From Candidatus Babeliales bacterium (lineage in GTDB: Bacteria; Babelota; Babeliae; Babelales; RVW-14): 64,000 nt of DNA. Below, piece by piece: positions 31,942-55,867 of the stretch (position 1 is its first letter; the number at the start of each line of letters is the position of its first letter). The stretch spans positions 35,423 to 99,422 of the forward strand of contig JBAZSL010000002.1 of assembly GCA_041662445.1 (NCBI GenBank), given 5' to 3'. The notes below the pieces were generated by a model that saw nothing but the letters and a program-made list of their open reading frames with translations, ran no database searches and was not told the DNA's origin. A program made the translations under genes and the position numbers.

Positions 31942-33099
31942 ATGTTCGGAGCAACAAAAAAATACTCTTACGGTAAGCAAACGATATCATGTAGCGATAT
32001 GTGGGCGGTACTCAAAGCCCTACGGTCATCATGGTTGACGCAAGGTCCTAAGGTACGTGAATTTGAACAGGCTCTTTGCTCGTACACCGGAGCTCGTTAT
32101 TGTGTGGTGGTTGCCAATGCCACTGCGGCGCTTCATATCGCTCTATTGGCACTCAAGATTTCACCTCTTGATCGCGTCGTTACCTCTCCGATTACCTTTG
32201 TTGCTTCGGCCAACAGTATTTTACATGCAGGTGGCAATGTTCAGTTTGCTGACATTTGTCCCGAAACCGCATGCATAGATCCGTGTGAGATTGAAAAAAA
32301 TATTACGCAAGAAACCAAAGGAATAATGCCGGTCCATTTTGCTGGACAGTCGTGTGATATGGAGCGTATTGCTACCATTGCAAAATCTCGAAATTTATTT
32401 GTTGTCGAAGATGCCGCCCATGCCCTGGGCTCACATTATAAAGATGAAAAAGTTGGCTCCTGTCGTTATTCAGATGCGGCTATTTTTTCATTTCATCCCG
32501 TTAAAAATATTACGACAGGTGAAGGTGGCGCCATTACCACCAACCGAGAGGATCTATACGAAGTAATGTTGATGCTACGGACGCACGGCATTACGCGTGA
32601 TCCAGCACGTATGACGAAGAACGATGGAGCATGGTATTACGAACAACAGTTGCTCGGGTTTAATTATAGAATTACTGATATTCAGTGTGCGCTTGGTCTT
32701 TCGCAGCTCAAACGCCTTGATACCTTTGTGCAGCAACGAAGAGAATTGGTCGAAATGTATCGTGAAGAATTTAGGGATGATGCGCGCTTTTGCCTATTAC
32801 AGGAAAACAAATATTCACGAGCAGCATTCCATCTATTTCCACTGCTTATTGATTTTAACGAGATCAAAATAAATAAAAAAAATTTATGTGCTGCTTTGGC
32901 TCAAAAAGGAGTGCATACACAGGTGCACTATATTCCGGTTCATATACAGCCCTATTATAGAAATCTTGGGTTTGTTTCTGGGAGTTTTCCGCATGCAGAA
33001 TCGTATTATCAGCGAACACTCTCTCTTCCTCTCTATCCATTGCTAAGATCGCGTGATATCAAAAATATTGTAAAAATCATAAAAACAACAGCTGTGTAA
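31942..33099 (+). CDS. pseC: UDP-4-amino-4,6-dideoxy-N-acetyl-beta-L-altrosamine transaminase (DegT/DnrJ/EryC1 family)
   Basis: YGKQTIS N-terminus, ATAALHIAL and the PLP-lysine segment SFHPVKNITTGEGG. Its position is directly after pseB. Confidence 0.85.
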   Translation: MFGATKKYSYGKQTISCSDMWAVLKALRSSWLTQGPKVREFEQALCSYTGARYCVVVANATAALHIALLALKISPLDRVVTSPITFVASANSILHAGGNVQFADICPETACIDPCEIEKNITQETKGIMPVHFAGQSCDMERIATIAKSRNLFVVEDAAHALGSHYKDEKVGSCRYSDAAIFSFHPVKNITTGEGGAITTNREDLYEVMLMLRTHGITRDPARMTKNDGAWYYEQQLLGFNYRITDIQCALGLSQLKRLDTFVQQRRELVEMYREEFRDDARFCLLQENKYSRAAFHLFPLLIDFNEIKINKKNLCAALAQKGVHTQVHYIPVHIQPYYRNLGFVSGSFPHAESYYQRTLSLPLYPLLRSRDIKNIVKIIKTTAV

Positions 33100-33112: not shown

Positions 33113-34375
33113 ATGTTTAAAATTGGGTTGAAACTTTGGTCGACGAATGAGCAGTATGTGAATGAAGCGATTCGTCTCTGCGAACATGGTTTTTGCGATT
33201 ATATTGAGCTTTTTGCTGTGCCGAAATCATTCGAGCACCATGTTGGTCTATGGGCGGCGGTCAAGAAAAAAACCAATATTATGATGATAATTCACGCGGC
33301 GCATTTGCGTGAAGGGGTAAATCTGGCTCAATCACCGTGCTTTGAGAATAATATGGTTGTTGCACGAGAAGCGCTTGCCTTTGCTGATGAACTTGGGGCC
33401 TTGTCGGTCATTTTTCATCCCGGAACAAATGGACAATGGCAGGAAACCTGTCGACAAATTTCTCATATTCGTGATGCACGCATTGTTATCGAAAATAAAC
33501 CATATTTTGTTTCTCCTGAATTGATTTGTAATGGTGCAACCTATGAAGAGGTTAAATCAATTATTGACACAACGAGAGCTGGTTTTTGTTGTGACATAGG
33601 TCACGCCGTTTGTGCTGCAAATGCGTTGCACCAAGATCAACTTGAGTACGTGAAAAAATTTTTATCATTGCAACCACGCATGTTCCATCTTGCTGACGGG
33701 GATTGGTGCGGCGTGTATGATCAGCATGATCATCTGGGACATGGATTATTCAAATTAAACGAGCTGCTGCGTTTATTGCCTGAAGATAGCATGATTACCT
33801 TGGAAACAGCGCACGATTCCGATCATAGTTTAGTCGATTTTGAATCGGATGTTGCATATGTGCGCATGCTAGAAAAGCAGTGGCTCCGAGAACGTACGAA
33901 TGCCGATATTACTATTGATCCAGCAACGTTGGACGATCTGCATGATATTTTTAATCTTTCAAATGATGATGAAGTTAGAAGAAATTCGATCAATATTCAA
34001 AAAATTGCCTGGAATGACCATGTTGCATGGTTCAACGAACAAATAAGAAGCAAAGAGGATTATTTTTTTGTGGCACGCAACAAAAATAATGATTTTGTTG
34101 GACAGGTACGTTTTGACAAGGTGCGCACTGAAAATTGTCTTCGTATCAGTGTAAGTTTGTGCAAAGAGTTCCGCAATAAGGGTCTTGGTGCTCATCTTAT
34201 AGCATTGAGCTCTCAAAGAGTCCTTCACAATACACAGGCAACAAAAATATGTGCTTATATCAAGCCTGAAAACGGAGCATCCATAAAAGCTTTTTCTAAG
34301 GCTGGTTATGTTGCCGTTGGTAGTGTAAAAGTTGATGGAGTTGAATTGTCGGTGTTTGAATGTACATTGCGATAA
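33113..34375 (+). CDS. fusion: xylose-isomerase-like TIM-barrel (AP_endonuc_2) domain + PseH-like GNAT N-acetyltransferase domain
   Basis: The N-terminal ~255 aa show the TIM-barrel pattern (IFHPG, VIENKP, CCDIGHA, HLADGD, ITLET). The C-terminal ~150 aa are GNAT-like (FVARNKNNDFVGQVRFD, RNKGLGAHL, ENGASIKAFSKAGY). The gene sits between pseC and pseI, where pseH and pseG are expected. Confidence 0.6.
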   Translation: MFKIGLKLWSTNEQYVNEAIRLCEHGFCDYIELFAVPKSFEHHVGLWAAVKKKTNIMMIIHAAHLREGVNLAQSPCFENNMVVAREALAFADELGALSVIFHPGTNGQWQETCRQISHIRDARIVIENKPYFVSPELICNGATYEEVKSIIDTTRAGFCCDIGHAVCAANALHQDQLEYVKKFLSLQPRMFHLADGDWCGVYDQHDHLGHGLFKLNELLRLLPEDSMITLETAHDSDHSLVDFESDVAYVRMLEKQWLRERTNADITIDPATLDDLHDIFNLSNDDEVRRNSINIQKIAWNDHVAWFNEQIRSKEDYFFVARNKNNDFVGQVRFDKVRTENCLRISVSLCKEFRNKGLGAHLIALSSQRVLHNTQATKICAYIKPENGASIKAFSKAGYVAVGSVKVDGVELSVFECTLR

Positions 34376-34397: not shown

Positions 34398-35450
34398 ATG
34401 AGAGATATTGTTATCGACAGCATAAAAATTGGAAGGCAGCACCCACCGTTTGTTGTCGCTGAAATGTCGGGCAATCATAATCAGTCGTTGCAGCGGGCAC
34501 TTCAACTTGTTGAGGCTGCCGCATATGCAGGCGTTAACGCCGTTAAGCTTCAAACATATACCGCAGATACCATAACGCTTGATGTACAAAGCGACGACTT
34601 TATGATCAATGATGCAAAAAGTCTTTGGCGCGGGGCAACGCTACATGCACTGTATCAACAATCCTATACTCCTTGGGCGTGGCACAAGCAAATTATGGAG
34701 AAATGTAAGCAACATGGATTGTTGTGTTTTAGCACACCCTTTGACGAGACAGCAGTCGATTTTTTGGAATCACTGAATGTCCCCTGTTACAAAATTGCTT
34801 CTTTTGAAGTTGTTCATTTACCTTTGATAAAAAAAGTTGCCTCGACCGGTAAACCATTGATTATTTCGACGGGGCTTGCAAATGTTGCCGAGCTCTATGA
34901 GGCGGTTGCGGTTGCGCATTCGGCAGGTTGTCGTGATATTGTTTTGCTTAAATGCACAAGTACGTATCCAGCCGAGCCGGTGGATTCAAATCTTATAACT
35001 ATTCCTCATATGCAGACTCTTTTCGATTGCCATGTTGGACTGTCAGATCACACGTTGGGCTTGGGTGTTAGTGTTGCCAGTATTGCATTAGGTGCAACTT
35101 TTATAGAAAAGCATTTTACGTTATGTAGGGCTGATGGTGGTGCTGATGCTGAATTTTCATTAGAACCTGAAGAAATGAAAAATTTAGTTATTGAAATAAG
35201 CCGCGCATGGCAGGCGCTTGGAAATGTTGCTTATGGACCAACGTTACATGAAAAAAAATCACTTCAATTTAGAAGATCCATTTATGCTTCACGGGATATT
35301 ATGGCTGGAGAAATTTTAAGTGCAGAGAATTTGAAGATCATTAGACCAGGATATGGACTAGCTCCTAAGTATTTGGAAGTGATTGTTGGGAGAAAAGCTT
35401 TACGTGATATTACTAAAGGAACGCCTGTAGATTGGCAAATGTTTGTATAA
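34398..35450 (+). CDS. pseI: pseudaminic acid synthase (NeuB family with C-terminal SAF domain)
   Basis: PFVVAEMSGNHNQSL, VKLQTYTADT, YKIASFE, LLKCTSTYPA and GLSDHTLG, with a C-terminal SAF-like region (IRPGYGL). Confidence 0.85.
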   Translation: MRDIVIDSIKIGRQHPPFVVAEMSGNHNQSLQRALQLVEAAAYAGVNAVKLQTYTADTITLDVQSDDFMINDAKSLWRGATLHALYQQSYTPWAWHKQIMEKCKQHGLLCFSTPFDETAVDFLESLNVPCYKIASFEVVHLPLIKKVASTGKPLIISTGLANVAELYEAVAVAHSAGCRDIVLLKCTSTYPAEPVDSNLITIPHMQTLFDCHVGLSDHTLGLGVSVASIALGATFIEKHFTLCRADGGADAEFSLEPEEMKNLVIEISRAWQALGNVAYGPTLHEKKSLQFRRSIYASRDIMAGEILSAENLKIIRPGYGLAPKYLEVIVGRKALRDITKGTPVDWQMFV

Positions 35451-35469
35451 CAACTAAGGATGATTGGTA

Positions 35470-36483
35470 ATGAAAAGAGTAAAAATTCTTGAGACGACGC
35501 TCAGAGATGGAAGCTATGCCATAAATTTTTCTTTTACGATCAAGGATACGGCACTCATATGCAGAGAATTGGAGGCGGCAGGCCTTGAGTTTATAGAAAT
35601 TGGACATGGCGTTGGCCTCAACGCTTCGAATTGTGGCTATGGGCAGGCGGCGCAGACGGATGAAGAATATTTAGAAGCTGCTGCAAGCGTCTTGAGCAAG
35701 GCTAAATTTGGAATGTTTTGTATTCCTGGAATTGCGCGGCTTGAGGATATTGATATGGCTGCGCAGTACAAAATGGGGTTTATCAGGATAGGTACTAATG
35801 TTACCGAAGTTGCATCTTCGCAGCCTTTTATCCAAAGGGCCAAACAACACGGAATGTTCGTGTGCGCGAATTTTATGAAATCTTATGCTATGGCCCCTCT
35901 GGAATTTGCAAAAATGGTGAAACTTTCGGAGAGTTTTGGTGCAGATATGGTCTATGTTGTGGACTCTGCAGGCGGAATGTTCCCCGATGATATAAAAAGC
36001 TACTACCAAGCAATAAGGGAAGTATCGAATGTTCCTTTGGGGTTTCATGGGCATGACAATCTTGCATTTGCTGTGTACAACAGCATTTATGCTGCTGAGC
36101 AGGGTTTTGAAATTGTTGATAGTTCTTTGCAGGGACTGGGAAGAAGTTCCGGTAATGCGGCTACAGAAAATTTAATAGCAGCGCTTATGAAAAAAAAATA
36201 TTGCCTAGACATAGATTTTTTCAAAATTTTAGCCATCGGCCAGAAGTATATAAAACCATTGATAACTTCTAAAGGGAAGGGCGCCTTAGATATTGTTGCG
36301 GGCTTTTCGGAATTTCATTCAAGTTATATGTGTTATATCAACAAGTTCGCTGCACAGTACGAAATAGATCCGGCGCGCTTAATGATTGAGGTAAGCAATG
36401 TTGATAAAATTAATGTTACCGAAAAAATGGTTGAGCGTGTTGCTGCGCATATCGCCGAAGAAAAACCGCGGGATTTATATTGA
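35470..36483 (+). CDS. HMGL-like/DmpG-like aldolase (pyruvate carboxyltransferase TIM barrel)
   Basis: ILETTLRDGSYA, VVDSAGGMFP and GFHGHDNLAFAV follow the 4-hydroxy-2-oxovalerate aldolase pattern. AAGGA is upstream of the ATG at 35470. Confidence 0.7.
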   Translation: MKRVKILETTLRDGSYAINFSFTIKDTALICRELEAAGLEFIEIGHGVGLNASNCGYGQAAQTDEEYLEAAASVLSKAKFGMFCIPGIARLEDIDMAAQYKMGFIRIGTNVTEVASSQPFIQRAKQHGMFVCANFMKSYAMAPLEFAKMVKLSESFGADMVYVVDSAGGMFPDDIKSYYQAIREVSNVPLGFHGHDNLAFAVYNSIYAAEQGFEIVDSSLQGLGRSSGNAATENLIAALMKKKYCLDIDFFKILAIGQKYIKPLITSKGKGALDIVAGFSEFHSSYMCYINKFAAQYEIDPARLMIEVSNVDKINVTEKMVERVAAHIAEEKPRDLY

Positions 36484-37946
36484 TGAATGAATGTGTTAAG
36501 GCGGCTTTTTGTCGAATTTGGGATAAAGATTTTGTTGTTGATTCTTTGCATAATAAAAAACTTACCGGTAAAGATTTTTTTTCTGCTGTAATGCATTGCA
36601 AGCAACAACTTGAATCCCTTGGACTCTGCAAGCAGGATAAAATTTGTCTTCTGATGAACAACTCCCTTGATCTTGTTGTTATGTATTTTGCCTGTCTTTT
36701 TATGCAATTGATTATTATTCCTATTGATCCGCATAAAGGCCAAAGAGAAATAGATGAGATTTTAAAGATCGTAAACGGCAAAAAAATCTTTTGTGATAAA
36801 ACATCAGAATATCGTGGCACTGATGTCGTGGCGATTGAGTCAATAATGGATAAGTTTTATGCGAGCAACGGAGATGAGATAGGCGATATAAGTCTTATTG
36901 ATGCGCTTGATTTTAGTCATATTTATTTGATTACCTTCACCTCGGGGACGACTGGAGTATGTAAAGGGGTAAGGCATAGTTTTAATAATTTGGTAGCAAG
37001 TGCGAGGGCATTTAATAATCGATTTAACTTTGATCAGCAAAACATTTTTTACCATAATGTGCCGATGACGTATATGGCGGGAATTTTAAACCTCATCATT
37101 CTTCCCTTCGTCGCAGGAAGTACTATTGTTCTCGGTCCTCGCTTTGATGTTTCACAGGTGATGAATTTTTGGGACGTTCCTATTGGCCAAGGGGTGAACA
37201 CCTTTTGGTTTGTGCCAACGATGCTTTCGCTGCTTCTCAGGTTTGATCGTGGTAACAAGGGTGCTGATTATTTGAGAGCGGTAAAAGCGATTGGATGCGT
37301 GGGGACTGCGCCATTGAACGTGCTGGTTAAGAAGCAGTTCGAAGAGAAATATGGTGTGTGCCTATACGAAAGCTATGGACTTTCGGAAACCCTTTTTGTT
37401 GCAACAAATTCTGCCTCTTTGAATATGAATGGGAGCGTTGGTACCTTGCTTGATGGTGTGACGGTGTCTGTTGAAGATGATGGTGAATTGTTGGTATCGG
37501 TTCCGTGGATGTTTTTGGGTTACATGAACATGGACAGCAAGCAAGACTTTGTACGCAGTGGTTTCAAGTCTGGAGACATTGGTGCTTTTGGAGTACATAA
37601 ATTTTTATTCATAACGGACCGAAAAAAGGATTTAATCATTCGCGGAGGGATTAACATTAGCCCCGCGCGGTTGAATCGATTTATCAATGAAACAGGTTTT
37701 TTTGAAGAAAATGTTGTTGTGGGTGTGACTGATGACATCATGGGTGAAAAAAATGTTTGTTTTTTTGTTAAGGAAACGATATTTGAACGTGATCTTGAAA
37801 AAAAACTAAATATGAAAATTATGCATGATCTAGGGACCTCCTATTGCATAGATGAATTTATAAAAATGGATATTATTCCAAAAAATTTAAATGGAAAAGT
37901 TGATGCGCTGAAATTGAGAGAATTTTATTGTAAGAATCATTCATGA
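36480..37946 (+). CDS. adenylate-forming acyl/aminoacyl ligase (AMP-binding family)
   Basis: Core motifs TFTSGTTGVCKG, YGLSET, SGDIG and the RKKDLIIRGG hinge. ATGA overlap with neighbours. Confidence 0.8.
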   Translation: MMNECVKAAFCRIWDKDFVVDSLHNKKLTGKDFFSAVMHCKQQLESLGLCKQDKICLLMNNSLDLVVMYFACLFMQLIIIPIDPHKGQREIDEILKIVNGKKIFCDKTSEYRGTDVVAIESIMDKFYASNGDEIGDISLIDALDFSHIYLITFTSGTTGVCKGVRHSFNNLVASARAFNNRFNFDQQNIFYHNVPMTYMAGILNLIILPFVAGSTIVLGPRFDVSQVMNFWDVPIGQGVNTFWFVPTMLSLLLRFDRGNKGADYLRAVKAIGCVGTAPLNVLVKKQFEEKYGVCLYESYGLSETLFVATNSASLNMNGSVGTLLDGVTVSVEDDGELLVSVPWMFLGYMNMDSKQDFVRSGFKSGDIGAFGVHKFLFITDRKKDLIIRGGINISPARLNRFINETGFFEENVVVGVTDDIMGEKNVCFFVKETIFERDLEKKLNMKIMHDLGTSYCIDEFIKMDIIPKNLNGKVDALKLREFYCKNHS

Positions 37947-38653
37947 TCTTGGATATTGATCACATTGGATATTCATCAACAAACTTCGAAGATGATATTT
38001 GCCTTGTGCAGAGCCTTGGTTTTAACATTAGATTTGTGCAACGGGGAATCAAAAATCAGGATATTAAAAAAAAACTTCTCAGATCTTTTACGATGGAACA
38101 TCACATGGCCTTGTGCGCCCGTTCGTGTGACATAAGCATCGAGGTGGTGCACTACCCACAGGTAGGTCAAAAGCGTGTTGCACAAACATCATTTTTCCCA
38201 TTGGTAGGTAATCAAGAGGCGCAATTACTCAAACAGATCTCAGCACAAGATGATTTAAAACAGCTGAATATTTGCATTTCAGATATTCCCAAAACACTTA
38301 ATTTTTGGAAGGTTCTTGGATTTAATGCTGTTGAGCAGGGGGATGATTATCTTGCCTTTCGGTTCAGATCAATCCTTAACGGCAATGATTATTTTTTGTA
38401 CGCCAAATTGACAAATGCTGCTGTGCATAAAGTTTTTTTAGACGATATTGGGTTTACCTCATTGGCGTTGATTACGTCTTCGGCTTCAAGAGAAAGGGCT
38501 GCTCTTGAAAAACACAATTTTAAAGTAACGCCGATTGAACATGTTGCCATAGGAAATAAAAATTTGAGCATTTTTTTTAGCGAAAGTCCTGATGGACATA
38601 TTGTTGAATTTATTAGTCTTGAGGGTGAAAGTTTTGAGGGAAAATTGGCATGA
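37943..38653 (+). CDS. VOC (glyoxalase/dioxygenase-like) family protein, two modules
   Basis: IDHIGYSS at the N-terminus, a second module starting LNICISDIPKTLNFWKVLGF, and C-terminal GHIVEFISLE. The pattern is only suggestive. Confidence 0.4.
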   Translation: MILDIDHIGYSSTNFEDDICLVQSLGFNIRFVQRGIKNQDIKKKLLRSFTMEHHMALCARSCDISIEVVHYPQVGQKRVAQTSFFPLVGNQEAQLLKQISAQDDLKQLNICISDIPKTLNFWKVLGFNAVEQGDDYLAFRFRSILNGNDYFLYAKLTNAAVHKVFLDDIGFTSLALITSSASRERAALEKHNFKVTPIEHVAIGNKNLSIFFSESPDGHIVEFISLEGESFEGKLA

Positions 38654-39351
38654 AGGATAACTGTAGCATTTACGATGCAAAAAAAACGTGGACGACTTTT
38701 TTTATGCAAGCCGAGATGGCATATCCATGCGAATATGTCATTAGGATTTTCAAAGGAGAGTATCCACGATTAAATTTAAAGAAAGATTGTTTTCTCCACA
38801 AAAAAATATGCGATATTGGTTGTGGGGATGGAAGAAATCTGGTGCTCTTAAAGCAGGTTGGTTTGGATATTTATGGTGTTGAGATAACCAAGGAAATTGT
38901 TGATAAAGCTACCAATAATTTAAGGTCGGGTGGGATTCTTGATGCATCGGTAGTTGTTGGATCCAATAGAGACATCCCATTCGAAGCCGATTTTTTTGAT
39001 TTTCTTTTATCATGGAATGCCTGCTATTACATGGGTGCACGCATTGATTTCGATGCACATGTTGTAGAATTTGCGCGTGTGCTTAAGCCCGGGGGCCGTT
39101 TGATCCTGTCTATTCCCAAAAAATCCTGTTTTATTTATCACGAGAGTGAAACTTCAAGCCCTGGATACCAGGTCATTAAAAATGATCCATTCAATCTCAG
39201 AAATGGCGAGATTTTAAGGATGTTTGATGGTGAAAAAGACATACAAAAGACATTTTCGTCGCATTTTGAAAATTTTGTTTTCGGGTCGATAGAGGATGAT
39301 TGTTTTGGCTTTGATTATCATTGGCATTTAGTGGTGTGTACAAGGAAGTAG
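38650..39351 (+). CDS. class I SAM-dependent methyltransferase
   Basis: ICDIGCGDGRN motif I, FDFLLSWNACYY and LKPGGRLILSIP. Confidence 0.75.
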   Translation: MKDNCSIYDAKKTWTTFFMQAEMAYPCEYVIRIFKGEYPRLNLKKDCFLHKKICDIGCGDGRNLVLLKQVGLDIYGVEITKEIVDKATNNLRSGGILDASVVVGSNRDIPFEADFFDFLLSWNACYYMGARIDFDAHVVEFARVLKPGGRLILSIPKKSCFIYHESETSSPGYQVIKNDPFNLRNGEILRMFDGEKDIQKTFSSHFENFVFGSIEDDCFGFDYHWHLVVCTRK

Positions 39352-39353
39352 CA

Positions 39354-40523
39354 ATGATGTTGGCAACAAGACTTAAAGAGCTCAAGTTTTCTGCAACCAT
39401 AGGAGTTGCTGATAAAGTGAGAGAGTTAGAGGCGTGTGGCGAAAAAATAATTCAACTGAGTGTTGGGCAGCCACATGTGCCAACGCCTATTGAATTCAAA
39501 CAGGGTGCTATCAGTGCGCTTATGAATGATCATGTTTTTTATAGCCACAGCCGCGGTATTTTGGAACTACGAAAGTTAATTATCCAGCGCTACAACACAT
39601 TGTATGGAACATTGTTTGATGCCGAGAAAAATATTTTGATTACGCCCGGCGGAAAACAGGCCATTTATTATTTTATAATGTCGGTACTCAATACAGGTGA
39701 TGAGGTTATCATCCCAACGCCAAGTTGGGTGAGCTATGCAGAAATAGTGAAAATGGCCGGCGGGATGCCTGTTTTTGTTGAGTGTCCAAAAGATAAAAAT
39801 TTTGAAATTTGTTTTGATCTGATTGAGAAGGCGATTACCTCTCGGACTAAAGCAATCATTCTTAATAGCCCTAATAATCCCACCGGTGTTATGGTTAAAA
39901 AAGAAGTTCTTGAGGCGATCAACAATTTGTGTGTGAGTCGCGATATTTTCTTGCTCAGCGATGAAGTGTATGACCAAATTGTTTTTGATAATCAGTGCAA
40001 CGCTTCAATTGTTTCGGTTAACCATACCTTAAAAAATTGTGTAATGATTAACAGCTTTTCAAAAATGTATTCTATGAGCGGTTGGCGTATCGGATATATC
40101 TTAGGAGCCCCGGAGATAATTGGTGCCATGCTCAAATTTCAGCAAAATACCGTGACATGCCCAACAACATTTGCCCAATTTGGAGCTCTGGAAGCCATTA
40201 AGCATGGGGACTGGTTTACCACGCAACTTGTTGAAATGTATCAGGAAAATAGAAATTTTTTGATTGCTGGTTTGCAAAAAATGCGATCCTTTAATTTTGT
40301 ATGTCCCGAAGGGACGTTCTATTTATTCCTTGATGTTTCAAAAATCACTACAGATTCTGCTGCATTTTGTCTTGATTTGCTTTCCAGATGCAAGGTTGCA
40401 GCTGTTCCAGGAATAGCATTTGGCAACAATGGTGAAGGATTTATAAGAATTAGTTTTGCGACGGAAAAGTCAAATCTCGTTTTGTTCCTCCAAAGGTTAA
40501 ACGAAACTTATGAAAGTTGTTGA
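39354..40523 (+). CDS. class I/II PLP-dependent aminotransferase (aspartate aminotransferase-like)
   Basis: LSVGQP, NSPNNPTG and the PLP-lysine motif SFSKMYSMSGWRIGY. AAGGAAG is upstream of the ATG at 39354. Confidence 0.85.
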   Translation: MMLATRLKELKFSATIGVADKVRELEACGEKIIQLSVGQPHVPTPIEFKQGAISALMNDHVFYSHSRGILELRKLIIQRYNTLYGTLFDAEKNILITPGGKQAIYYFIMSVLNTGDEVIIPTPSWVSYAEIVKMAGGMPVFVECPKDKNFEICFDLIEKAITSRTKAIILNSPNNPTGVMVKKEVLEAINNLCVSRDIFLLSDEVYDQIVFDNQCNASIVSVNHTLKNCVMINSFSKMYSMSGWRIGYILGAPEIIGAMLKFQQNTVTCPTTFAQFGALEAIKHGDWFTTQLVEMYQENRNFLIAGLQKMRSFNFVCPEGTFYLFLDVSKITTDSAAFCLDLLSRCKVAAVPGIAFGNNGEGFIRISFATEKSNLVLFLQRLNETYESC

Positions 40524-41187
40524 TCTGACTATTGCTATTGAAGAGGGCATGCAAACATTTAATGCACCCTGGCATCCGGTTGTTGAAATTACTCAGCTTG
40601 GACGACATGGTGTTGAGGGGCGGCAGACATGCCGCTTCTCGTTAGGGTCGCATACAGGAACGCATATGGATGCTCCTTTGCATTTTGTACAGGGAGGGCA
40701 ACCAATAGATGCGATTCCATTTTCAAAAATATTTGGGGAGGTAACAGTTGTAGATTTTTCCTTTCTGCAGGAGGGCGATTGTGTGACGGTGGAACTTCTC
40801 GAAACTGTTGCGCTTACTCAGAAGATTATTTTTAATTTTGGCTGGTCGCGTTATTGGAATACACGGAAATTTTATAAAGGGTATCCATTTTTTTCACCAA
40901 ACGCAGCGCATTATTTAGTTCAAAAGCACGTAGAGCTTGTTGGGATGGATACTCCATCGCCTGATGATAGTCGTATAGTTTTATCTGGGGATATTCTGGG
41001 CGGAGATGATGATTCCCCTGTGCACAAAATTTTTCTGAAAAAAGGCATTGTGCTTTTGGAATATCTTGCAAATCTTGATAAAGTAAAAAAAGATTCTTGT
41101 GGCTGGAAACTTGTAGCCATGCCTCTCAAAATCAGAGGTGCTGACGGAGCTCCAGCTCGTGTTTATATCTATAAGGAAGAGCAGTAG
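40510..41187 (+). CDS. cyclase-family protein (kynurenine formamidase-like metal hydrolase)
   Basis: Signature GSHTGTHMDAPLHF (HxGTHxDxPxH) and about 225 aa. Confidence 0.75.
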   Translation: MKVVDLTIAIEEGMQTFNAPWHPVVEITQLGRHGVEGRQTCRFSLGSHTGTHMDAPLHFVQGGQPIDAIPFSKIFGEVTVVDFSFLQEGDCVTVELLETVALTQKIIFNFGWSRYWNTRKFYKGYPFFSPNAAHYLVQKHVELVGMDTPSPDDSRIVLSGDILGGDDDSPVHKIFLKKGIVLLEYLANLDKVKKDSCGWKLVAMPLKIRGADGAPARVYIYKEEQ

Positions 41188-41456
41188 TGAATCGATCAAC
41201 CGATGTTTCTGATTGGTTAATGCGCTGGTTTGAAGCAAATACAACTGCGACAAGGCAAGAGCTCAATAATTCTCATGACGCTAACTATTTTGAAAAGCGT
41301 TGGATGGACTCTCTCAAATTTGTCGTCTTTATCATGGATGTTGAAGCTCGTTTCAATATTAGTTTTTCAAATGAAGAGTTTCAAAATAGAGACTTTTCGA
41401 CTATAGATGGCCTAAAAAAAATTATTATTAACCACATTGAGTCTTTACATGAATAA
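41187..41456 (+). CDS. acyl/aminoacyl carrier protein-like (89 aa)
   Basis: GTG start overlaps the upstream stop (TAGTG), with AAGGAAG upstream. A DSL serine motif (WMDSLKFVVFIMDVEARF) sits at the helix II position typical of carrier proteins. Confidence 0.55.
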   Translation: MNRSTDVSDWLMRWFEANTTATRQELNNSHDANYFEKRWMDSLKFVVFIMDVEARFNISFSNEEFQNRDFSTIDGLKKIIINHIESLHE

Positions 41457-42225
41457 ATACGATTATTCTTTGCCCAGTATTGTTAATGCTTTACAGCGTG
41501 TTGGTATCACACGTGGGAGCACTATTTTTGTTCATAGCAACCTTGGATTTTTCGGCATGCTTCAGAATGCCATCGAGCCATCTGATTATTACACTATTTT
41601 CAAGGAAGCGATTTTTGACGTGATTGGCGACACTGGAACTTTAGTTCTTCCGACATTCAGTTACAGCTTTTGTAAAAAAGAAATTTTTGACCCGGAAAAA
41701 ACGCCCGGTGTCTGTGGCCTTTTGTCAGAATGTGCGCGCTTAGATGAACATGCGAAGCGATATAATGATGCAAATTTCTCTGTGGTTGCTCTTGGGAAGA
41801 ATGCAGATCTTTTTACGCACGATGCCACAGAATATTCATTTGGCCCCGGTTCATTTTGGGATCGTTTTCTTAAGCAGAATGGCATTTTTTGCAACTTCAA
41901 TTTTGATGCAGGGTCGACTTTTATTCACTATGTCGAAAGAGAATTGGGTGTTGGTTATCGGTTTGATAAGGCTTTTTGCGGGGTTACTCGTTCAGGAAAC
42001 GTTTTACACGAGCGAGTTTTTTATCATTTCTGTTATGACCTTACAAAGCCTGAACATGGCCCTGAATTTTCCAAGTTTGATAAAAGGGCCAAGGCTACTG
42101 GGCTTGCACGTGTTGCCAATCTTGGGCGTGGGCAAATAGTGGCTATTTCTGCGGGTGATACGTTCACGCTCATTCGGCAGGAACTGATATTGGATGGTGG
42201 ATTTTTGACTAAAGGTTGGATGTAG
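41449..42225 (+). CDS. AAC(3)-family (Antibiotic_NAT-like) N-acyltransferase
   Basis: LQRVGITRGSTIFVHSNLGFFG, GTLVLPTFSYSF and STFIHYVE match the aminoglycoside 3-N-acetyltransferase fold family. The start could be ATG 41449 or TTG 41437. Confidence 0.7.
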   Translation: MNKYDYSLPSIVNALQRVGITRGSTIFVHSNLGFFGMLQNAIEPSDYYTIFKEAIFDVIGDTGTLVLPTFSYSFCKKEIFDPEKTPGVCGLLSECARLDEHAKRYNDANFSVVALGKNADLFTHDATEYSFGPGSFWDRFLKQNGIFCNFNFDAGSTFIHYVERELGVGYRFDKAFCGVTRSGNVLHERVFYHFCYDLTKPEHGPEFSKFDKRAKATGLARVANLGRGQIVAISAGDTFTLIRQELILDGGFLTKGWM

Positions 42226-42226
42226 G

Positions 42227-43552
42227 ATGCGGGATCTTCAGATGTATCGACTTATGCAAAGGCTCTATCCAATCTGCAGAAGTATTACCGGTGACGGGGT
42301 TAGGCAAACGCTACGAATTATCCAGGAATATATTCCAATAAAAATTTCAGAAGTATCTACGGGAACGAATGTTTTTGATTGGACCGTCCCCAGAGAATGG
42401 AATATCAGAGATGCATATATAAAGAATTCGCGGGGAGAAAAAATTGTTGATTTTAAAGAATCCAACATTCACGTGCTCAATTACAGTATTCCTGTGAACA
42501 AAAGAATGGGACTTGAAGAACTGAAACAGCATCTTTTTTCGTTGCCAGAACACCCAGAATGGATTCCCTACTTAACGTCATATTATAAGGACAATTGGGG
42601 GTTTTGTTTAAGCCATAAGCAGTACGAATCACTTCAAGAAGATACTTATGAGGTGGTTATAGATTCAAGCCTAGAGAATGGATCGTTAACTTTTGCAGAG
42701 CTCGAAATACCAGGGCAATCTGAAAAAGAAATTTTGTTTACGTGCTATGTTTGTCATCCATCATTGTGTAATGACAATTTGAGCGGTGTTGTTTTATTGA
42801 CCTTCTTGGCGCAACATATGCTTGGCACAAGCCTGAAATATTCATATCGATTTTTATTTATTCCTGAAACCATTGGTGCTATTGCATGGTTAGCAATCAA
42901 CGAGCAGAAAGTACGTAATATCCAGTATGGACTTCTTGCAACTTGTGTAGGTGACGATGGATTTTCAACATACAAAAAAACGCGAAATGAAAATTCATTC
43001 ATCGATAGAGTTGTTGAAAAGGTTTTGATCGACAGTGGTGAACCTTATAAAATACTGCCCTATTCTCCTTACGGAAGCGATGAACGACAATTTAGTTCGC
43101 CAGGTTTTGCAATCCCGATGGGTTCTTTGATGCGAACGTCCTATGGCTGTTTCCCTGAATATCATACATCTGCAGACAATCTGGACTTTATAAAACCAAT
43201 GTCGTTAGAAAACTCATTAAATAAGTATCTGCGTACTATTTTTGTTGTAGAAAACAATAGGTTGCTTATCAGCACAAACCCAAAATGTGAGCCACAGCTC
43301 GGTAAAAGAGGTCTCTATAAAGACATTGGAAGCAGAAAAAAATCAGAATATTTGGAGGAAGCAATTTTTTGGCTTCTGAATTTGTGCGATGGATCGTGTT
43401 CACTTCTGGATATTGCGATTCGTTCTAAGTTGCCATTTGAAGATGTCAAAGAAGCGGCCATGCTTTTATGTGAGCATGGGTTACTTAATGAAATAACCGA
43501 GCAAGGTTATGCACATGAAATGTTTGGCAATCATTCCTGCACGTGGCGGTAG
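42227..43552 (+). CDS. DUF4910/M28 aminopeptidase-like domain protein of polysaccharide loci
   Basis: The N-terminal pattern LYPICRSITGDGVRQTL...VFDWTVPREWNI...HVLNYSIP...IPYLTSYYKDNWGFC is characteristic of the DUF2172/DUF4910 aminopeptidase-like family. There is a C-terminal wHTH-like tail. Confidence 0.65.
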   Translation: MRDLQMYRLMQRLYPICRSITGDGVRQTLRIIQEYIPIKISEVSTGTNVFDWTVPREWNIRDAYIKNSRGEKIVDFKESNIHVLNYSIPVNKRMGLEELKQHLFSLPEHPEWIPYLTSYYKDNWGFCLSHKQYESLQEDTYEVVIDSSLENGSLTFAELEIPGQSEKEILFTCYVCHPSLCNDNLSGVVLLTFLAQHMLGTSLKYSYRFLFIPETIGAIAWLAINEQKVRNIQYGLLATCVGDDGFSTYKKTRNENSFIDRVVEKVLIDSGEPYKILPYSPYGSDERQFSSPGFAIPMGSLMRTSYGCFPEYHTSADNLDFIKPMSLENSLNKYLRTIFVVENNRLLISTNPKCEPQLGKRGLYKDIGSRKKSEYLEEAIFWLLNLCDGSCSLLDIAIRSKLPFEDVKEAAMLLCEHGLLNEITEQGYAHEMFGNHSCTWR

Positions 43553-44243
43553 TTTAAGAATTCCGCGTAAGAATATAAAAGCATTTTGTGGCCAGCCAAT
43601 TATTGCCTATTCAATTGCAGCCGCGCTGAGATCTGGATGCTTTAGTGAAATTATGGTTTCAACTGAAGATGATGAGATAGCTGCGGTTGCTGCGCATTGT
43701 GGTGCAAAGATTCCCTTTAAGCGGTCGTTCAGGACCGCGGATAATTACGCAACACTTGTTGATGTCGTTGAAGAGGTGGTTAGAGACTATCGAAAGATTG
43801 ATATTTATTTTGATTATGTTTGTTGCATTTTAGCGACCGCGCCCTTTATTACGACCGGTATGGTGCAACAAAGTTATGAGATTTTAATTAATCGCTCAGC
43901 TGATGCGGTTATTTCGGTTGTCCGCTTCGACTATCCCATTCAACGAGGACTAAAGCTTGAGGATGGTTTTATAAGAATGATGTGGCCAGAAAATTATGAA
44001 AAACGGTCACAAGATTTGGAGTCGGTCTACCATGATGCCGGATTATTCTATTGGCTACGGACTGAAAGTCTGTTGAGGCAGAAGCGCTTTTATATGGAGA
44101 GGAGTATTCCCTTTGAATTATCACATGCCAATGTACACGATATAGATACGTTGGAAGATTGGCAAATTGCAGAATTCAAATATATGTTTTTTCACAACGC
44201 AAACAAACTGAAGCAGGCGAACGATGGCGCAGCTTATAAGTGA
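43515..44243 (+). CDS. pseF: pseudaminic acid cytidylyltransferase (CMP-Pse synthetase)
   Basis: AIIPARGGSLRIPRKNIK, VSTEDDEIA, ATAPF and HDAGLFYW match the PseF/NeuA-type cytidylyltransferase pattern. Confidence 0.85.
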   Translation: MKCLAIIPARGGSLRIPRKNIKAFCGQPIIAYSIAAALRSGCFSEIMVSTEDDEIAAVAAHCGAKIPFKRSFRTADNYATLVDVVEEVVRDYRKIDIYFDYVCCILATAPFITTGMVQQSYEILINRSADAVISVVRFDYPIQRGLKLEDGFIRMMWPENYEKRSQDLESVYHDAGLFYWLRTESLLRQKRFYMERSIPFELSHANVHDIDTLEDWQIAEFKYMFFHNANKLKQANDGAAYK

Positions 44244-44844
44244 ACAAGAAAAATTTTGGGTAGATACATTCGGTGACGAATATACTGATAGAAATCAGGG
44301 GGCTGAGTTGTTGGCAAGCAATATTGCATTGTTTGCTCGTATAGTTCGTAGTACCGGAAGAATTAATTCTATTTTGGAAATTGGTGCCAATAGAGGACTT
44401 AATTTACAGGCGCTAAAAATTTTGATTCCGCATGTCCAATTGGCGGCGGTAGAAATTAATTCATATGCGTGCAAAAAACTTGCAACGATAAGTGATGTAG
44501 AGATTTATAATCAATCAATTGTTGAATTCTCTGTGCAAAAAACGTACGACGTTGTGTTGTCCAAAGGCGTTTTAATTCATATAAATCCGGAACAACTGCC
44601 ACATGTTTATGATGTTATGTATCGTAGCTCACATAAATACATCTGTGTGATCGAGTACTATAATCCAAAGCCAGTATCGCTTGAATATCGCGGATATGCG
44701 CAGAAGTTGTTTAAGCGTGATTTTGCAGGTGAAATTTTAGACAGATTTCACGATGTGGCGCTTGTTGATTATGGTTTTGCCTATCACCGCGATACATACT
44801 TTGCGCAGGATGATATAACATGGTTTTTATTGGAAAAAAAATAA
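44224..44844 (+). CDS. pseudaminic acid biosynthesis-associated methylase-like SAM methyltransferase
   Basis: N-terminus EQEKFWVDTFGDEYTDRN, ILEIGANRGLNL and YDVVLSKGVLIHI. It lies directly after pseF. Confidence 0.65.
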   Translation: MAQLISEQEKFWVDTFGDEYTDRNQGAELLASNIALFARIVRSTGRINSILEIGANRGLNLQALKILIPHVQLAAVEINSYACKKLATISDVEIYNQSIVEFSVQKTYDVVLSKGVLIHINPEQLPHVYDVMYRSSHKYICVIEYYNPKPVSLEYRGYAQKLFKRDFAGEILDRFHDVALVDYGFAYHRDTYFAQDDITWFLLEKK

Positions 44845-44863
44845 AGAAATGAGGAGAGGTACT

Positions 44864-46090
44864 GTGAAGTACTGCGTAAAATGCGTTATGCCGGACACCA
44901 AGCCTGATTTAAAATTTAATAAAGATGGTGTTTGCAGTGCGTGCGAATACTACGAAAAACGAAGAGATATCAACTGGCAGGAACGACGCAAAGAGCTCAT
45001 GAAGGTTTTAGAAAAATATAAATCAAAAGATGGCCACAATTGGGATTGCATTGTTCCGGTGAGCGGCGGTAAGGACAGTACGTATCAAGTTGTTAAGATG
45101 TTGCAACTGGGCATGAGTCCTTTGTGCGTTACTGCAACGACCTGCCATCTGTCAGATGTGGGGAGAAAAAACATTGAAAATCTCAAGAACTTAGGTGTTG
45201 ATTACGTGGAGTTTTCCACAAACCCCATCGTGCGAAGAAAGCTTAACAGAATTGCATTATCACGCGTCGGTGACATTTCGTGGCCTGAGCATGTGAGCAT
45301 TTTTACCATTCCGGTTCAGACTGCTGTTAATTATCGTATTCCTTTGATCATTTGGGGCGAAAATCCACAAAATGAGTACGGCGGTCCTGCTGCAGCTGGC
45401 AGTAATAATGTTCTTGATCGTAAATGGTTAATGTCATTTGGCGGCCTACTGGGGATGAATCTTTCCGATTTTGAGGGCAAAGAAGGTATAGAAGGAAAAG
45501 ATCTTATTGCCTATACCTATCCCTCAGATCAGCAATTAAAAGATGGTGGAGTTACGGGCTTGTTTTTGGGCCACTATTTTCCTTGGGATGGTCTTTCAAA
45601 TGCCTTGTTTTCAACGGCTTTTGGTTTTACCTCTTATTCGGGCGCGATCGAAGGATCGATGGCGAATTATGAAAACGTTGACAACTATCAAACAGGAATT
45701 CATGACTATTTCAAATATTTGAAATATGGTTTTGGACGTGTTACTGATTTTGCGTGTTTGCATCTGAGACGTGGACGATTATCTAGGGAAGATGCCCTTC
45801 AGATTGTACAGCGCCTTGATGGCAAGTTTCCGTGGAGTTATTTGGGAAAACCATTACAAGAAATTCTGTCGCCACTTTCACTGAGCATCGATCAATTTAT
45901 TCAAATTTGCGACAAGTTTACTAATAAGAAAATTTTTAAGACGGACACACAAGGGAATTTGGTTAAGGACGCGGATGGTAATCTTATCAAGCTTTACCAT
46001 CCGATTGAACTATCTCAGCGCACAGCAGCTGCTTACTACCCACAAAGTACCGTGGTTCGAAGTTATGAAGATATTTCTTCTGCCATTTAA
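44864..46090 (+). CDS. N-acetyl sugar amidotransferase (PP-loop ATPase; PseA/WbuX-like)
   Basis: N-terminal Zn-ribbon CVKCVMP...GVCSAC and PP-loop VPVSGGKDST. The GTG at 44864 has AGGAG 7 nt upstream. The alternative in-frame ATG at 44849 lies inside the SD. Confidence 0.8.
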   Translation: MKYCVKCVMPDTKPDLKFNKDGVCSACEYYEKRRDINWQERRKELMKVLEKYKSKDGHNWDCIVPVSGGKDSTYQVVKMLQLGMSPLCVTATTCHLSDVGRKNIENLKNLGVDYVEFSTNPIVRRKLNRIALSRVGDISWPEHVSIFTIPVQTAVNYRIPLIIWGENPQNEYGGPAAAGSNNVLDRKWLMSFGGLLGMNLSDFEGKEGIEGKDLIAYTYPSDQQLKDGGVTGLFLGHYFPWDGLSNALFSTAFGFTSYSGAIEGSMANYENVDNYQTGIHDYFKYLKYGFGRVTDFACLHLRRGRLSREDALQIVQRLDGKFPWSYLGKPLQEILSPLSLSIDQFIQICDKFTNKKIFKTDTQGNLVKDADGNLIKLYHPIELSQRTAAAYYPQSTVVRSYEDISSAI

Positions 46091-47510
46091 TCCTGCCTGG
46101 ACGCCTCATTTTGAAACTGAATTGGAACTTATCGTACAACACCAAGAGCGTGGTGATGATGTTTATCTTTTAGTCGATGATGGAAGATTAACGTTTACCG
46201 TTTCTGATCCGTATAATTCTTACGATATGAAAAAGGTTTCAAAGTCTCGGCTACAACAAGGATTGGATCTCATAAAATTTCCGAAAAAAAACATAATTAA
46301 AATCAAAAAAAAGCCTCGTGATGCCGATGTGATTCCACAAAGTTTTTGTAGTTATGAAGAACTCCACAAATTTAAAATAGCCGATGCCGAACTTGGCAGG
46401 GGGGTTATCTCAACAATAACCTCTTTTGCCCGCGACAATCGTTTTGATGTTGAAGCATATGCTGATTTCATTCATAGGGGATTATGGTCATCATTGCTTG
46501 TCTATGAGTCGGTTGTTGAGGCCATTGCCGCATACACACCCGATGTGGTTTATATTTTTAATGGAAGGTTTGCTGAGCTTTGGGCGGCCGCAGAGGCCTG
46601 CAAGAAGTGCAAGGTGACTTTTAGGACGCACGAAAGAGGTTGTGACATACATTCTTACGCCGTTTATGAAAATAGCTCATTGCATGATATTGAAACCCTC
46701 AAAAAGGAAGTTGCTTCTATTGGCCTTGCATATGAAAAAAATATTGCTGAAAAATGGTTTTTTGACCGGCGATTAGGAAAGGATCAAGGATGGTTTTCAT
46801 ATGTGAAGGAGCAGAAAAAACAACAACTCCCGCAGAATTTTGATGCGTCCAAAATGAACATAGCGATTTTTAATTCTTCACTTGATGAATATGAAAGTTT
46901 TTCTGCGTGGAATACTCCTTTCTATGGGAATGAAAATGAAGGAATCAGAATGATTTTTGACTCCTTTATGCATCGTTCAGATATTCATTTTTATGTGAGG
47001 ATGCATCCAAATCTCAAGGGGCTTGATAATACTCAGGTAAGAGAGTTGTATGCCCTGCGCTATTCTAATGTGACCATTATTGATTCGGATGCTGCTATCG
47101 ATAGCTACGCATTACTTGATGCGTGCGACAAGCTTGTAACTTTTTCATCTACCATTGGTGTAGAGGGGTGTTATTGGGGCAAGCCGGTTATTCTTGCCGG
47201 TCGTGCCATTTACGAAGATTTGAACTGTTGCTATAGACCATCAACGCACCAGCAACTTGTCGATTATCTCTCGTCCGATCTTGATCCGTTGCCACGACAG
47301 GGGGCTCTTCAGTATGCGTATTGGCAATCGACCTATGGCCGGCCATTTAAACATTTTAATGCAACAGGTTATTTTCAAGGAACATTCATGGGCCAAAAAA
47401 TTGTTCCTCGATTTAGTATCAAAGACAGAATTGATTTTAAATTGCATTATCTTGCACAACGGATAAAAAAATATGCAGCTTCAGTGTCCAATTCTTTTTT
47501 TGATTTTTAA
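46065..47510 (+). CDS. hypothetical protein; possible CMP-sugar (capsule-synthesis/sialyltransferase-like) glycosyltransferase
   Basis: 481 aa from the ATG at 46065. It contains an HP motif (YVRMHPNLKG) and a GT-B-like C-terminal segment (DKLVTFSSTIGVEGCYWGKPVILAG). The family assignment is tentative. Confidence 0.35.
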   Translation: MKIFLLPFNPAWTPHFETELELIVQHQERGDDVYLLVDDGRLTFTVSDPYNSYDMKKVSKSRLQQGLDLIKFPKKNIIKIKKKPRDADVIPQSFCSYEELHKFKIADAELGRGVISTITSFARDNRFDVEAYADFIHRGLWSSLLVYESVVEAIAAYTPDVVYIFNGRFAELWAAAEACKKCKVTFRTHERGCDIHSYAVYENSSLHDIETLKKEVASIGLAYEKNIAEKWFFDRRLGKDQGWFSYVKEQKKQQLPQNFDASKMNIAIFNSSLDEYESFSAWNTPFYGNENEGIRMIFDSFMHRSDIHFYVRMHPNLKGLDNTQVRELYALRYSNVTIIDSDAAIDSYALLDACDKLVTFSSTIGVEGCYWGKPVILAGRAIYEDLNCCYRPSTHQQLVDYLSSDLDPLPRQGALQYAYWQSTYGRPFKHFNATGYFQGTFMGQKIVPRFSIKDRIDFKLHYLAQRIKKYAASVSNSFFDF

Positions 47511-54046: not shown

Positions 54047-54059
54047 AAGGTGTTATGTT

Positions 54060-55853: not shown

Positions 55854-55867
55854 AAGTATTAAACATG

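Follow-up and report, generated by a model that had tools for sequence, protein, structure and literature searches.

A nine-gene cassette was found within the pseudaminic acid (Pse) operon on a 64,000-nucleotide stretch of DNA (here called the window) from a Candidatus Babeliales bacterium (Dependentiae). The cassette spans positions 35464-43552 of the plus strand and consists of tightly packed, co-directional open reading frames (ORFs) between pseI and pseF, as a first-pass annotation of this DNA had described. Neighboring ORFs overlap by 1-44 nt or are separated by a 1-nt gap, the pattern of a translationally coupled operon. ORFs were assigned with Pfam and NCBIfam hidden Markov models (HMMs), with NCBIfam scores given below as score/cutoff. 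These scans upheld the earlier gene identifications, and all seven of the motifs quoted earlier were recovered in the genes to which they had been attributed, with minor corrections to the starts of the aldolase, aminotransferase and AAC(3)-like genes. The cassette is interpreted as a modular system that remodels an N-acyl group on a nonulosonic acid, here Pse, by swapping an acetyl for a custom acyl group, a reading to which we assign a probability of roughly 60%.

The first gene (35464-36483, +; probable true start ATG 35470) encodes an HMGL-like, DmpG-type class II pyruvate aldolase (PF00682, 133 bits; NF006049, 297/229). Its best matches in the PDB were DmpG-type aldolases, e.g., 8ih7, and the DmpG communication domain was still faintly detectable. 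The RDG aspartate and both histidines of GFHGHDNL, which we take to be the metal ligands, were invariant in the aldolase clade and the same as in 8ih7. The tyrosine of the RDGSY motif (Tyr18) was also invariant in the clade, whereas the aligned residue in 8ih7 is a histidine, presumably the catalytic base of DmpG/BphI. The enzyme shares its fold, the NF006049 subfamily and the conserved aspartate and histidines with the DmpG/BphI aldolases, but differs from them in its invariant tyrosine, in the lack of a DmpF or acylating dehydrogenase partner in the locus, in a glycan rather than aromatic-catabolic context, and in falling short of the 4-hydroxy-2-oxovalerate aldolase equivalog TIGR03217 (269.7 vs 286), on which ground a catabolic DmpG identity was rejected. 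It is predicted to make a 4-hydroxy-2-oxo acid. Members of the clade, 60-66% identical, came from Woesearchaeota, Methanolobus, Methanoregula, Thermotogota, candidate phyla radiation (CPR) bacteria and Dependentiae. The second gene (36480-37946, +) encodes an adenylate-forming acid-carrier protein ligase (PF00501 AMP-binding, 164 bits) with the motifs TSGTTGVCKG and YGLSET and a C-terminal region reading PKNLNGKVD; of 59 metagenome loci with both genes, 39 had it directly beside the aldolase gene.

The third gene (37943-38653, +) encodes a protein of 236 aa with no Pfam match above threshold; a copy with the same sequence carries an NCBI annotation in a Candidatus Babeliales (Dependentiae) metagenome-assembled genome (MAG). 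An AlphaFold2 (AF2) model based on a 55-sequence alignment reached a predicted local distance difference test (pLDDT) score of 91.6, an earlier model from a 5-sequence alignment having been poor (pLDDT 48). Foldseek matched the model to GLOD4 (E 2e-11; template modeling score 0.68) and also to the maize two-domain glyoxalase I, bearing out the first-pass label of a vicinal oxygen chelate (VOC)-like protein. Residues H7, E67 and E222 were invariant in the 55 sequences, and PF00903 was matched by 12 of 17 aligned family members at E ≤ 0.1 (best 1e-5). As modeled, the protein is a two-domain, glyoxalase I-like metalloenzyme of the VOC superfamily, built of paired beta-alpha-beta-beta-beta modules and bearing a metal site. 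Exhaustive HMMER searching returned ∼611 representatives at E ≤ 1e-10, where a word-indexed search had given only 5, so that the family cannot be called rare. The fourth gene (38650-39351, +) encodes an S-adenosylmethionine (SAM)-dependent methyltransferase (PF08241, 62 bits) that is 55-65% identical to cassette orthologues in archaea and bacteria and would O- or N-methylate the acyl unit. The methyltransferase and the VOC protein co-vary across loci and appear to form a tailoring pair.

The fifth gene (39321-40523, +; probable true start about 39354) encodes an AspAT-like class I/II aminotransferase (PF00155, 224 bits), for which the closest PDB matches were aspartate aminotransferases and which is 47% identical to its orthologue in the methanogen Methanobacterium ferruginis. 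It is an optional member of the cassette and would turn a 2-oxo into a 2-amino group. The sixth gene (40510-41187, +) encodes a PF04199 “cyclase” (102 bits), a metal hydrolase of the kynurenine formamidase/isatin hydrolase fold with the motif HTGTHMDAPLHF. Its nearest solved relatives were uncharacterized metal hydrolases, followed by kynurenine formamidases and isatin hydrolases. Membership holds at the level of the fold only, with the arylformamidase (KynB) equivalog TIGR03035 missed (73.8 vs 223), and an identity as kynurenine formamidase was therefore rejected. The cyclase is a core member of the cassette and would belong to the branch that makes the acid.

The remaining three genes encode a carrier, an acyltransferase and an aminopeptidase-like protein. 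The carrier (41187-41456, +; 89 aa) scored just below the PP-binding cutoff (18.2 vs 20.8 bits) and had DltC-like matches, while its M. ferruginis orthologue carries PF00550. The serine of its W(I/M)DS / DS(L/I/F) motif was kept in 5 of 5 aligned orthologues, so that, by sequence, a ligase is accompanied by a stand-alone carrier with a conserved phosphopantetheine serine. The next protein (41437-42225, +; probable true start ATG at about 41449) is an AAC(3)-fold N-acyltransferase (PF02522, 79.8 bits against a cutoff of 25) with weak PDB matches, E about 1e-6, to AAC(3)s and FrbF. It shares the fold of the aminoglycoside-resistance AAC(3) enzymes, but that identity was rejected because all of the resistance equivalog cutoffs were missed (NF033082, 45.5/270; NF033081, 37.9/420; NF033080, 23.9/480). 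Its predicted donor is an acyl-carrier protein. The logic of ligase, carrier and acyltransferase put forward in the first-pass annotation holds at this level. The last protein (42227-43552, +; 441 aa) combines DUF4910, DUF2172 and HTH_47 (PF16254, 355 bits), and is M28-peptidase-like with a winged-helix C-terminus. It had a weak match to M28 and a match of 541 bits to PDB 3K9T, an orphan “putative peptidase”. This protein, strongly conserved at 53-68% identity across domains, is a candidate de-N-acetylase partnering the acyltransferase.

The cassette had been described as an insertion between pseI and pseF. Comparative searches contradicted the view of a lineage-specific insertion with an unprecedented gene set and revealed the cassette to be widespread, conserved and modular rather than unique to the Babeliales genome. 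A 79%-identical relative (L082) had the whole locus in the same form, and two Babeliales-type loci had the cassette within the pse operon, flanked by pseI and pseF. The cultured methanogen M. ferruginis (AP027738.1, cassette at about 2.337-2.358 Mb) carried the identical nine genes in identical order, followed by PseB-like, DegT and CTP_transf_3 genes, and its proteins were 34-65% identical to the nine of the window. A Thermoproteota archaeon had a run of NeuB, aldolase, ligase, VOC, methyltransferase, cyclase, carrier and AAC(3) genes, with DUF4910, DegT, CMP-transferase and PseB-like genes on the opposite strand and a Maf-like MptE gene adjacent. A shuffled cassette with a B12-radical-SAM gene adjoined Leg-type (legionaminic acid) genes, including Epimerase_2, in a gammaproteobacterial MAG. 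An Omnitrophota MAG held a variant with a 2-hydroxyacid dehydrogenase, in which no aldolase or aminotransferase was detected. The link to Pse proposed earlier stands, since the cassette was syntenic with NeuB, PseB, PseC and CMP-transferase genes in bacteria and archaea; a complete lack of such synteny in relatives, which had been named as grounds for abandoning the proposal, was clearly not what was found. Because it is joined to Leg- or Neu-type (neuraminic acid) genes in the gammaproteobacterial lineage, the cassette serves more than one nonulosonic acid backbone. In three loci of that lineage (L085, L091, and L092) the Leg- or Neu-type genes joined to the cassette were Epimerase_2 and a LegB-like dehydratase with only ∼26% identity to PseB of the window.

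Metagenomes scanned with an aldolase-clade alignment yielded 509 related stretches, with the cassette on dozens of contigs. The best 80 of these 509 stretches were scored with family HMMs from five reference loci; 22 loci with at least 6 kb on either side of the aldolase were treated as full, and nonulosonic acid core genes were counted within 10 kb. Ligase and cyclase were present in all 22 full loci, the carrier in 20, the AAC(3)-like gene in 17, the VOC-like gene in 14, DUF4910 in 13, the methyltransferase in 11, the B12-radical-SAM gene in seven and the aminotransferase in six. Any nonulosonic acid core gene occurred in 19 of the 22, and NeuB in 15. At its smallest the cassette comprises aldolase, ligase, cyclase, carrier and AAC(3) genes, to which DUF4910 may be added. 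The aminotransferase, the 2-hydroxyacid dehydrogenase and the B12-radical-SAM enzyme are optional extras of particular lineages. Compact sets of aldolase, cyclase and ligase, with or without the aminotransferase, were found in L150-L152 and L159. The first-pass annotation had the aldolase and aminotransferase building a 2-oxo or 2-amino acid; with the aminotransferase in only 6/22 loci, an amino-acyl product would be specific to the variant that bears it and would not extend to the cassette at large.

The organization of the loci also bears on which proteins work together. In 29 of 34 loci the carrier and AAC(3)-like genes were immediate neighbors, including loci with an otherwise shuffled order. 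Two natural fusions (P0004 and P0041) joined an AAC(3)-like N-terminus to a DUF4910 C-terminus, and a third protein (P0087) had DUF4910 followed by GNAT. The L118/L119 lineage was without AAC(3) and DUF4910 and retained the cyclase; in L118, the carrier gene was followed by a GNAT-like gene and then by a CE4 deacetylase (Polysacc_deac_1), in the usual place of AAC(3) and DUF4910. The carrier/AAC(3) adjacency, the fusions and the GNAT plus CE4 variant together suggest a pair formed by an N-acyltransferase and a de-N-acetylase, in which DUF4910 would take the deacetylase role and leave the cyclase to the acid branch. In L118 (16879-20598) and L119 the replacement after the carrier also included a 405-aa methyltransferase, and a ferredoxin-like ORF preceded the B12-radical-SAM gene of this variant.

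The Cj1295 locus of Campylobacter jejuni appears to be the closest, though partial, precedent. Cj1295 (435 aa) is an aminopeptidase-like polysaccharide-biosynthesis protein (PIRSF015244) encoded beside the N-acetyltransferase Cj1296/7 and near pseB/pseC (PMC3068675). Phase variation of Cj1295 switches the Pse5(2,3-di-O-methylglyceroyl)7Ac glycoform of flagellin on and off in C. jejuni NCTC 11168, and its authors proposed that the C5 acetamido group is cleaved, permitting substitution (PMC3068675). In 2026 the protein was still listed merely as a putative transferase (PMC13130089). The likeness of Cj1295 to the DUF4910 protein of the window, and likewise of Cj1296/7 to the AAC(3)-like enzyme, is one of annotation. 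By annotation, both systems have an aminopeptidase-like protein and an N-acyl- or N-acetyltransferase near pse genes, and in C. jejuni a Pse N-acetyl gives way to a methylated hydroxy-acyl group; the acyl unit there is, however, glycerate-derived, whereas the window gene set, with its aldolase, ligase and aminotransferase, predicts a different acid. The genes neighboring Cj1295 presumably include acyl carrier proteins and a SAM methyltransferase, and we take the acyl unit to be made there with HAD/FkbH-like and FabH-like genes, with no aldolase, ligase, VOC or cyclase. The reading of DUF4910 as a deacetylase matches the only available genetics, i.e., those of Cj1295. The first-pass annotation could name no characterized cluster with this gene set; no paper with this cassette was found in the literature searched, but C. 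jejuni does provide a partial precedent.

It had instead been proposed that the formamidase-like cyclase frees the amine, in which case carrier-dependent acylation of Pse would proceed as described here and DUF4910 would do something else. This is decidedly unlikely, although relatives of PF04199 such as kynurenine formamidase and isatin hydrolase are amide or lactam hydrolases and the cyclase is universal in the full loci. The cyclase tracks the aldolase and ligase (22/22) more closely than AAC(3) (17) or DUF4910 (13), and L118 keeps it even though a dedicated CE4 deacetylase occupies the usual place of DUF4910. In addition, the fusions with N-acyltransferases involve DUF4910 and not the cyclase, and the genetics of Cj1295 favor a DUF4910-type protein, so that DUF4910 is the better candidate for the deacylation step.

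The genes flanking the cassette in the window specify what is, by equivalog, a genuine Pse pathway. Equivalog cutoffs were passed by pseB (30841-31938, +; TIGR03589, 493/408), pseC (31942-33099, +; TIGR03588, 506/424), pseI (34398-35450, +; TIGR03586, 487/340) and pseF (43509-44243, +; TIGR03584, 286/206). Downstream of pseF lie genes for a Pse biosynthesis-associated methylase (44224-44844, +; TIGR03587, 287/112), a WbuX/PseA-like N-acetyl-sugar amidotransferase (44849-46090, +; TIGR03573, 334/203) and a Capsule_synth-type putative Pse transferase (45975-47510, +; PF05159, 35 bits). Between pseC and pseI, a fusion gene (33113-34375, +) joins a TIM barrel to a PseH-like GNAT, the latter scoring 30.7 bits against PseH TIGR03585 (cutoff 93.1). 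The barrel is xylose-isomerase-like (AP_endonuc_2), with a faint likeness to Nfo and CbiR phosphodiesterases. No match to the UDP-sugar hydrolase PseG or to Glyco_tran_28_C was found among the ORFs from 26.9 to 52.3 kb, and the TIM barrel fused to GNAT may be a non-orthologous replacement of PseG. The same fusion was seen in L082, L089, L093, L114, L116, L144, and L156, lying beside NeuB in several unrelated metagenome loci.

This context also speaks to the destination of the product. The cassette might merely share an operon with pse, its product going to another sugar, lipid A, a protein or a free metabolite: in three of the 22 full loci no nonulosonic acid core gene lay within 10 kb, DUF4910 is frequent in CDP-hexose loci, and gmd/fcl and many glycosyltransferases also occur in the window. 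Such a destination is improbable, given that nonulosonic acid genes were found in 19 of the 22 full loci, often with NeuB directly upstream of the aldolase, that the cassette lies inside the pse operon in the two Babeliales-type loci, and that in both archaea and bacteria its neighbors are of the Pse or Leg type.

The reading in which the cassette remodels an N-acyl group of Pse can be laid out as a sequence of steps. All of the chemistry is extrapolated from gene content, as are the nature of the acid, the choice of N5 or N7 as acceptor and the point at which transfer takes place. The DmpG-type aldolase would condense pyruvate with a short aldehyde to a 4-hydroxy-2-oxo acid, which in the variant of the window the AspAT-like aminotransferase would convert to a gamma-hydroxy-alpha-amino acid. 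The SAM methyltransferase, the VOC metalloenzyme and the PF04199 hydrolase would tailor this acid, with methylation and an epimerization or isomerization beside the carbonyl (VOC proton chemistry) among the options, and with the cyclase handling a lactone or lactam or protecting the gamma-hydroxyl. The adenylate-forming ligase would load the finished acid as a thioester onto the 89-aa carrier. DUF4910 would take one N-acetyl off Pse5Ac7Ac or a CMP/UDP precursor, and the AAC(3)-fold enzyme would move the carrier-bound acyl onto the freed amine. The WbuX/PseA-like amidotransferase probably makes an acetamidino group from the N-acetyl on the other sugar nitrogen, after which PseF and the Capsule_synth-type transferase would add the sugar to a glycan at the cell surface. 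A plausible end product is a Pse in which one nitrogen bears an acetamidino group and the other a novel acyl.

Two further rearrangements of these roles were considered. In one, the AAC(3)-like enzyme would be an alternative to PseH acting on the 4-amino group of UDP-4-amino-4,6-dideoxy-AltNAc, with no deacetylation, and DUF4910 would either act later, for example by trimming a protecting residue off an aminoacyl or dipeptidyl group, as BtrG does for butirosin, or be a non-catalytic partner. The PseC product already has a free amine, the fold of DUF4910 is that of an M28-like aminopeptidase, the window variant would make an alpha-amino acid, and loci without any obvious N-acetyl-swap logic can also contain DUF4910. 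A PseH-like GNAT is nevertheless still present in the locus, a CE4 de-N-acetylase takes the usual place of DUF4910 in L118, and DUF4910 is kept in cassette variants that have no aminotransferase, which makes direct acylation rather unlikely. In the other, the DmpG-like aldolase would work on the nonulosonic acid itself, as a lyase or as a C4-epimerizing aldolase. Nonulosonic acids are 4-hydroxy-2-oxo acids and thus fit the substrate class, NeuB is often the immediate neighbor of the aldolase, and the tyrosine in place of the histidine of 8ih7 hints at an altered reaction. This is very improbable, since 39 of 59 loci have the aldolase translationally coupled to the ligase or next to it, the aldolase is part of the compact aldolase-cyclase-ligase sets, and the ligase and carrier would then be left with no evident source of acid.

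Acyl groups on Pse-type sugars outside Campylobacter also bear comparison with the proposed product. The Pse-type sugar on the flagellin of Treponema denticola bears a 2-methoxy-4,5,6-trihydroxyhexanoyl group (structure cited in PMC13439194). This acyl is formally a reduced, O-methylated aldol product of pyruvate and glyceraldehyde (a 2-keto-3-deoxy acid), which fits an aldolase, a methyltransferase and a ligase, but it is a 2-methoxy acid, whereas the aminotransferase of the window predicts a 2-amino acid. As a product of such cassette chemistry it is a suggestive parallel, read from the structure alone. Comparable to the proposed sugar, with its acetamidino and new acyl groups, is Tannerella Pse5Am7Gra (PMC5378307).

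The use of a ligase, a carrier and an acyltransferase for sugar amines is known, as is the diversity of N-acyl groups on nonulosonic acids. A ligase, a dedicated carrier and an acyltransferase install an unusual hydroxy- or amino-acyl group on a sugar amine in the RfbK-O system of Vibrio cholerae O1 (tetronate on perosamine) and in the butirosin system BtrI/J/H/G, which adds a later trimming step (BtrG). Compared with the window cassette, these systems use other acyltransferase folds and other sugars, and have no DUF4910 or AAC(3)-fold enzyme. What differs here is the combination of a Tyr-variant DmpG, VOC, cyclase, AAC(3)-fold enzyme and DUF4910, for which the searched literature held no describing paper. 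Within the same literature, neither 4-hydroxy-2-oxovalerate aldolase nor the pairing of an acyl carrier protein with an aminopeptidase was linked by any paper found to pseudaminic, legionaminic or nonulosonic acids, and DUF4910 was not mentioned in the papers listed for DUF4910 and pseudaminic acid.

Several points weigh against N-acyl remodeling as described. The mechanism is predicted from the genes, and all of the enzyme chemistry is inferred. To our knowledge, no AAC(3)-fold enzyme is known to use an acyl-carrier donor, and the members of the fold with known function that were matched here (AAC(3)s and FrbF) are acetyl-CoA acetyltransferases. A 4-hydroxyacyl thioester would tend to lactonize, and with a tyrosine at the position of the 8ih7 histidine, the reaction or substrate of the aldolase may differ. 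DUF4910 has “PE” at a position that we tentatively equate with the M28 “EE” motif. An alignment-based scan of GTDB representatives, in which the best DUF4910 match was 60% identical to the window protein, placed DUF4910 in CDP-hexose-type loci without AAC(3) in 78 of 80 cases, alongside glucose-1-phosphate cytidylyltransferase, C-methyltransferase, 3,5-epimerase and LmbE. Because most GTDB matches are of this kind, DUF4910 is a poor marker of the cassette. The cassette-linked and CDP-hexose-linked copies were equally similar to the window protein (median 56% in both sets), so that subclades by context, tried as separate identity classes, were rejected. From the predominance of CDP-hexose loci and this equal similarity it follows that the chemistry of DUF4910 must be generic, and its role may be more generic than de-N-acetylation of Pse. 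In C. jejuni NCTC 11168, the AAC(3)-like gene Cj1296/7 was frameshifted in each of the two flagellin variants, and the acyl glycoform depended on Cj1295 alone (PMC3068675).

A fuller version of N-acyl remodeling is held more tentatively, at somewhat less than even odds. It specifies DUF4910 as an M28-like de-N-acetylase, the AAC(3)-fold enzyme as a user of an acyl-carrier donor and the acid as a novel product of a pyruvate aldol reaction, with sugars diversified in this way in both prokaryotic domains. The acyl unit would then be a gamma-hydroxy, alpha-amino or alpha-oxy, methylated acid, possibly one able to form a lactone or lactam.

The N-acyl groups of nonulosonic acids carry much biological specificity, including antigenicity, recognition by phages and antibodies, and flagellar assembly. 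Workers on Tannerella have described the basis of acetimidoyl and glyceroyl substitutions as a major challenge, with knowledge of enzymes that modify these sugars being scarce (PMC5378307). The cassette is of interest as widespread, modular, present in both prokaryotic domains and experimentally tractable: a portable set of six to nine defined genes, with a culturable host in M. ferruginis and a solved DUF4910 structure in 3K9T. If the interpretation is correct, it would give first functions to DUF4910 (including 3K9T), to the roughly 600-cluster VOC family and to the Tyr-variant DmpG clade, and an acyl-carrier protein donor would be a first for the AAC(3) fold. It would also annotate hundreds of environmental gene runs that read [quoted passage not shown], and new nonulosonic acids would be expected in methanogens, candidate phyla and amoeba-associated Dependentiae. 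The cassette could further yield enzymes for the chemoenzymatic synthesis of Pse and Leg analogues.

DUF4910 relatives 50-60% identical to the window protein were found in many phyla (L002-L081, and plasmid matches H1-H25). A tblastn search of plasmids with DUF4910 gave rhizobial and Streptomyces replicons only, with a single annotated neighbor, an rfbC-type 3,5-epimerase. The G+C content of the window was ∼0.38-0.40 over 36001-46000, covering the cassette and the downstream Pse genes, compared with 0.42-0.45 for the genes just upstream. This low G+C, together with the 50-65% identity of most cassette proteins to archaeal orthologues, is compatible with horizontal acquisition.

Surface-glycan synthesis takes up roughly 40 kb of the window, with gmd/fcl, UDP-glucose dehydrogenase, at least eight glycosyltransferases, an ABC exporter and LptF/G, so that a reduced-genome member of the Dependentiae invests heavily in a decorated surface sugar. 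A tRNA scan found no tRNA genes in the 64,000 nt. Elsewhere in the window were an anaerobic ribonucleotide reductase (9143-11068) and a DUF4143 AAA ATPase (21131-22483). Just downstream of the glycan locus, three successive large ORFs of 579, 597 and 497 aa with no Pfam match occupy 52307-57361 on the minus strand, adjoined by split transketolase genes at 57297-59296.

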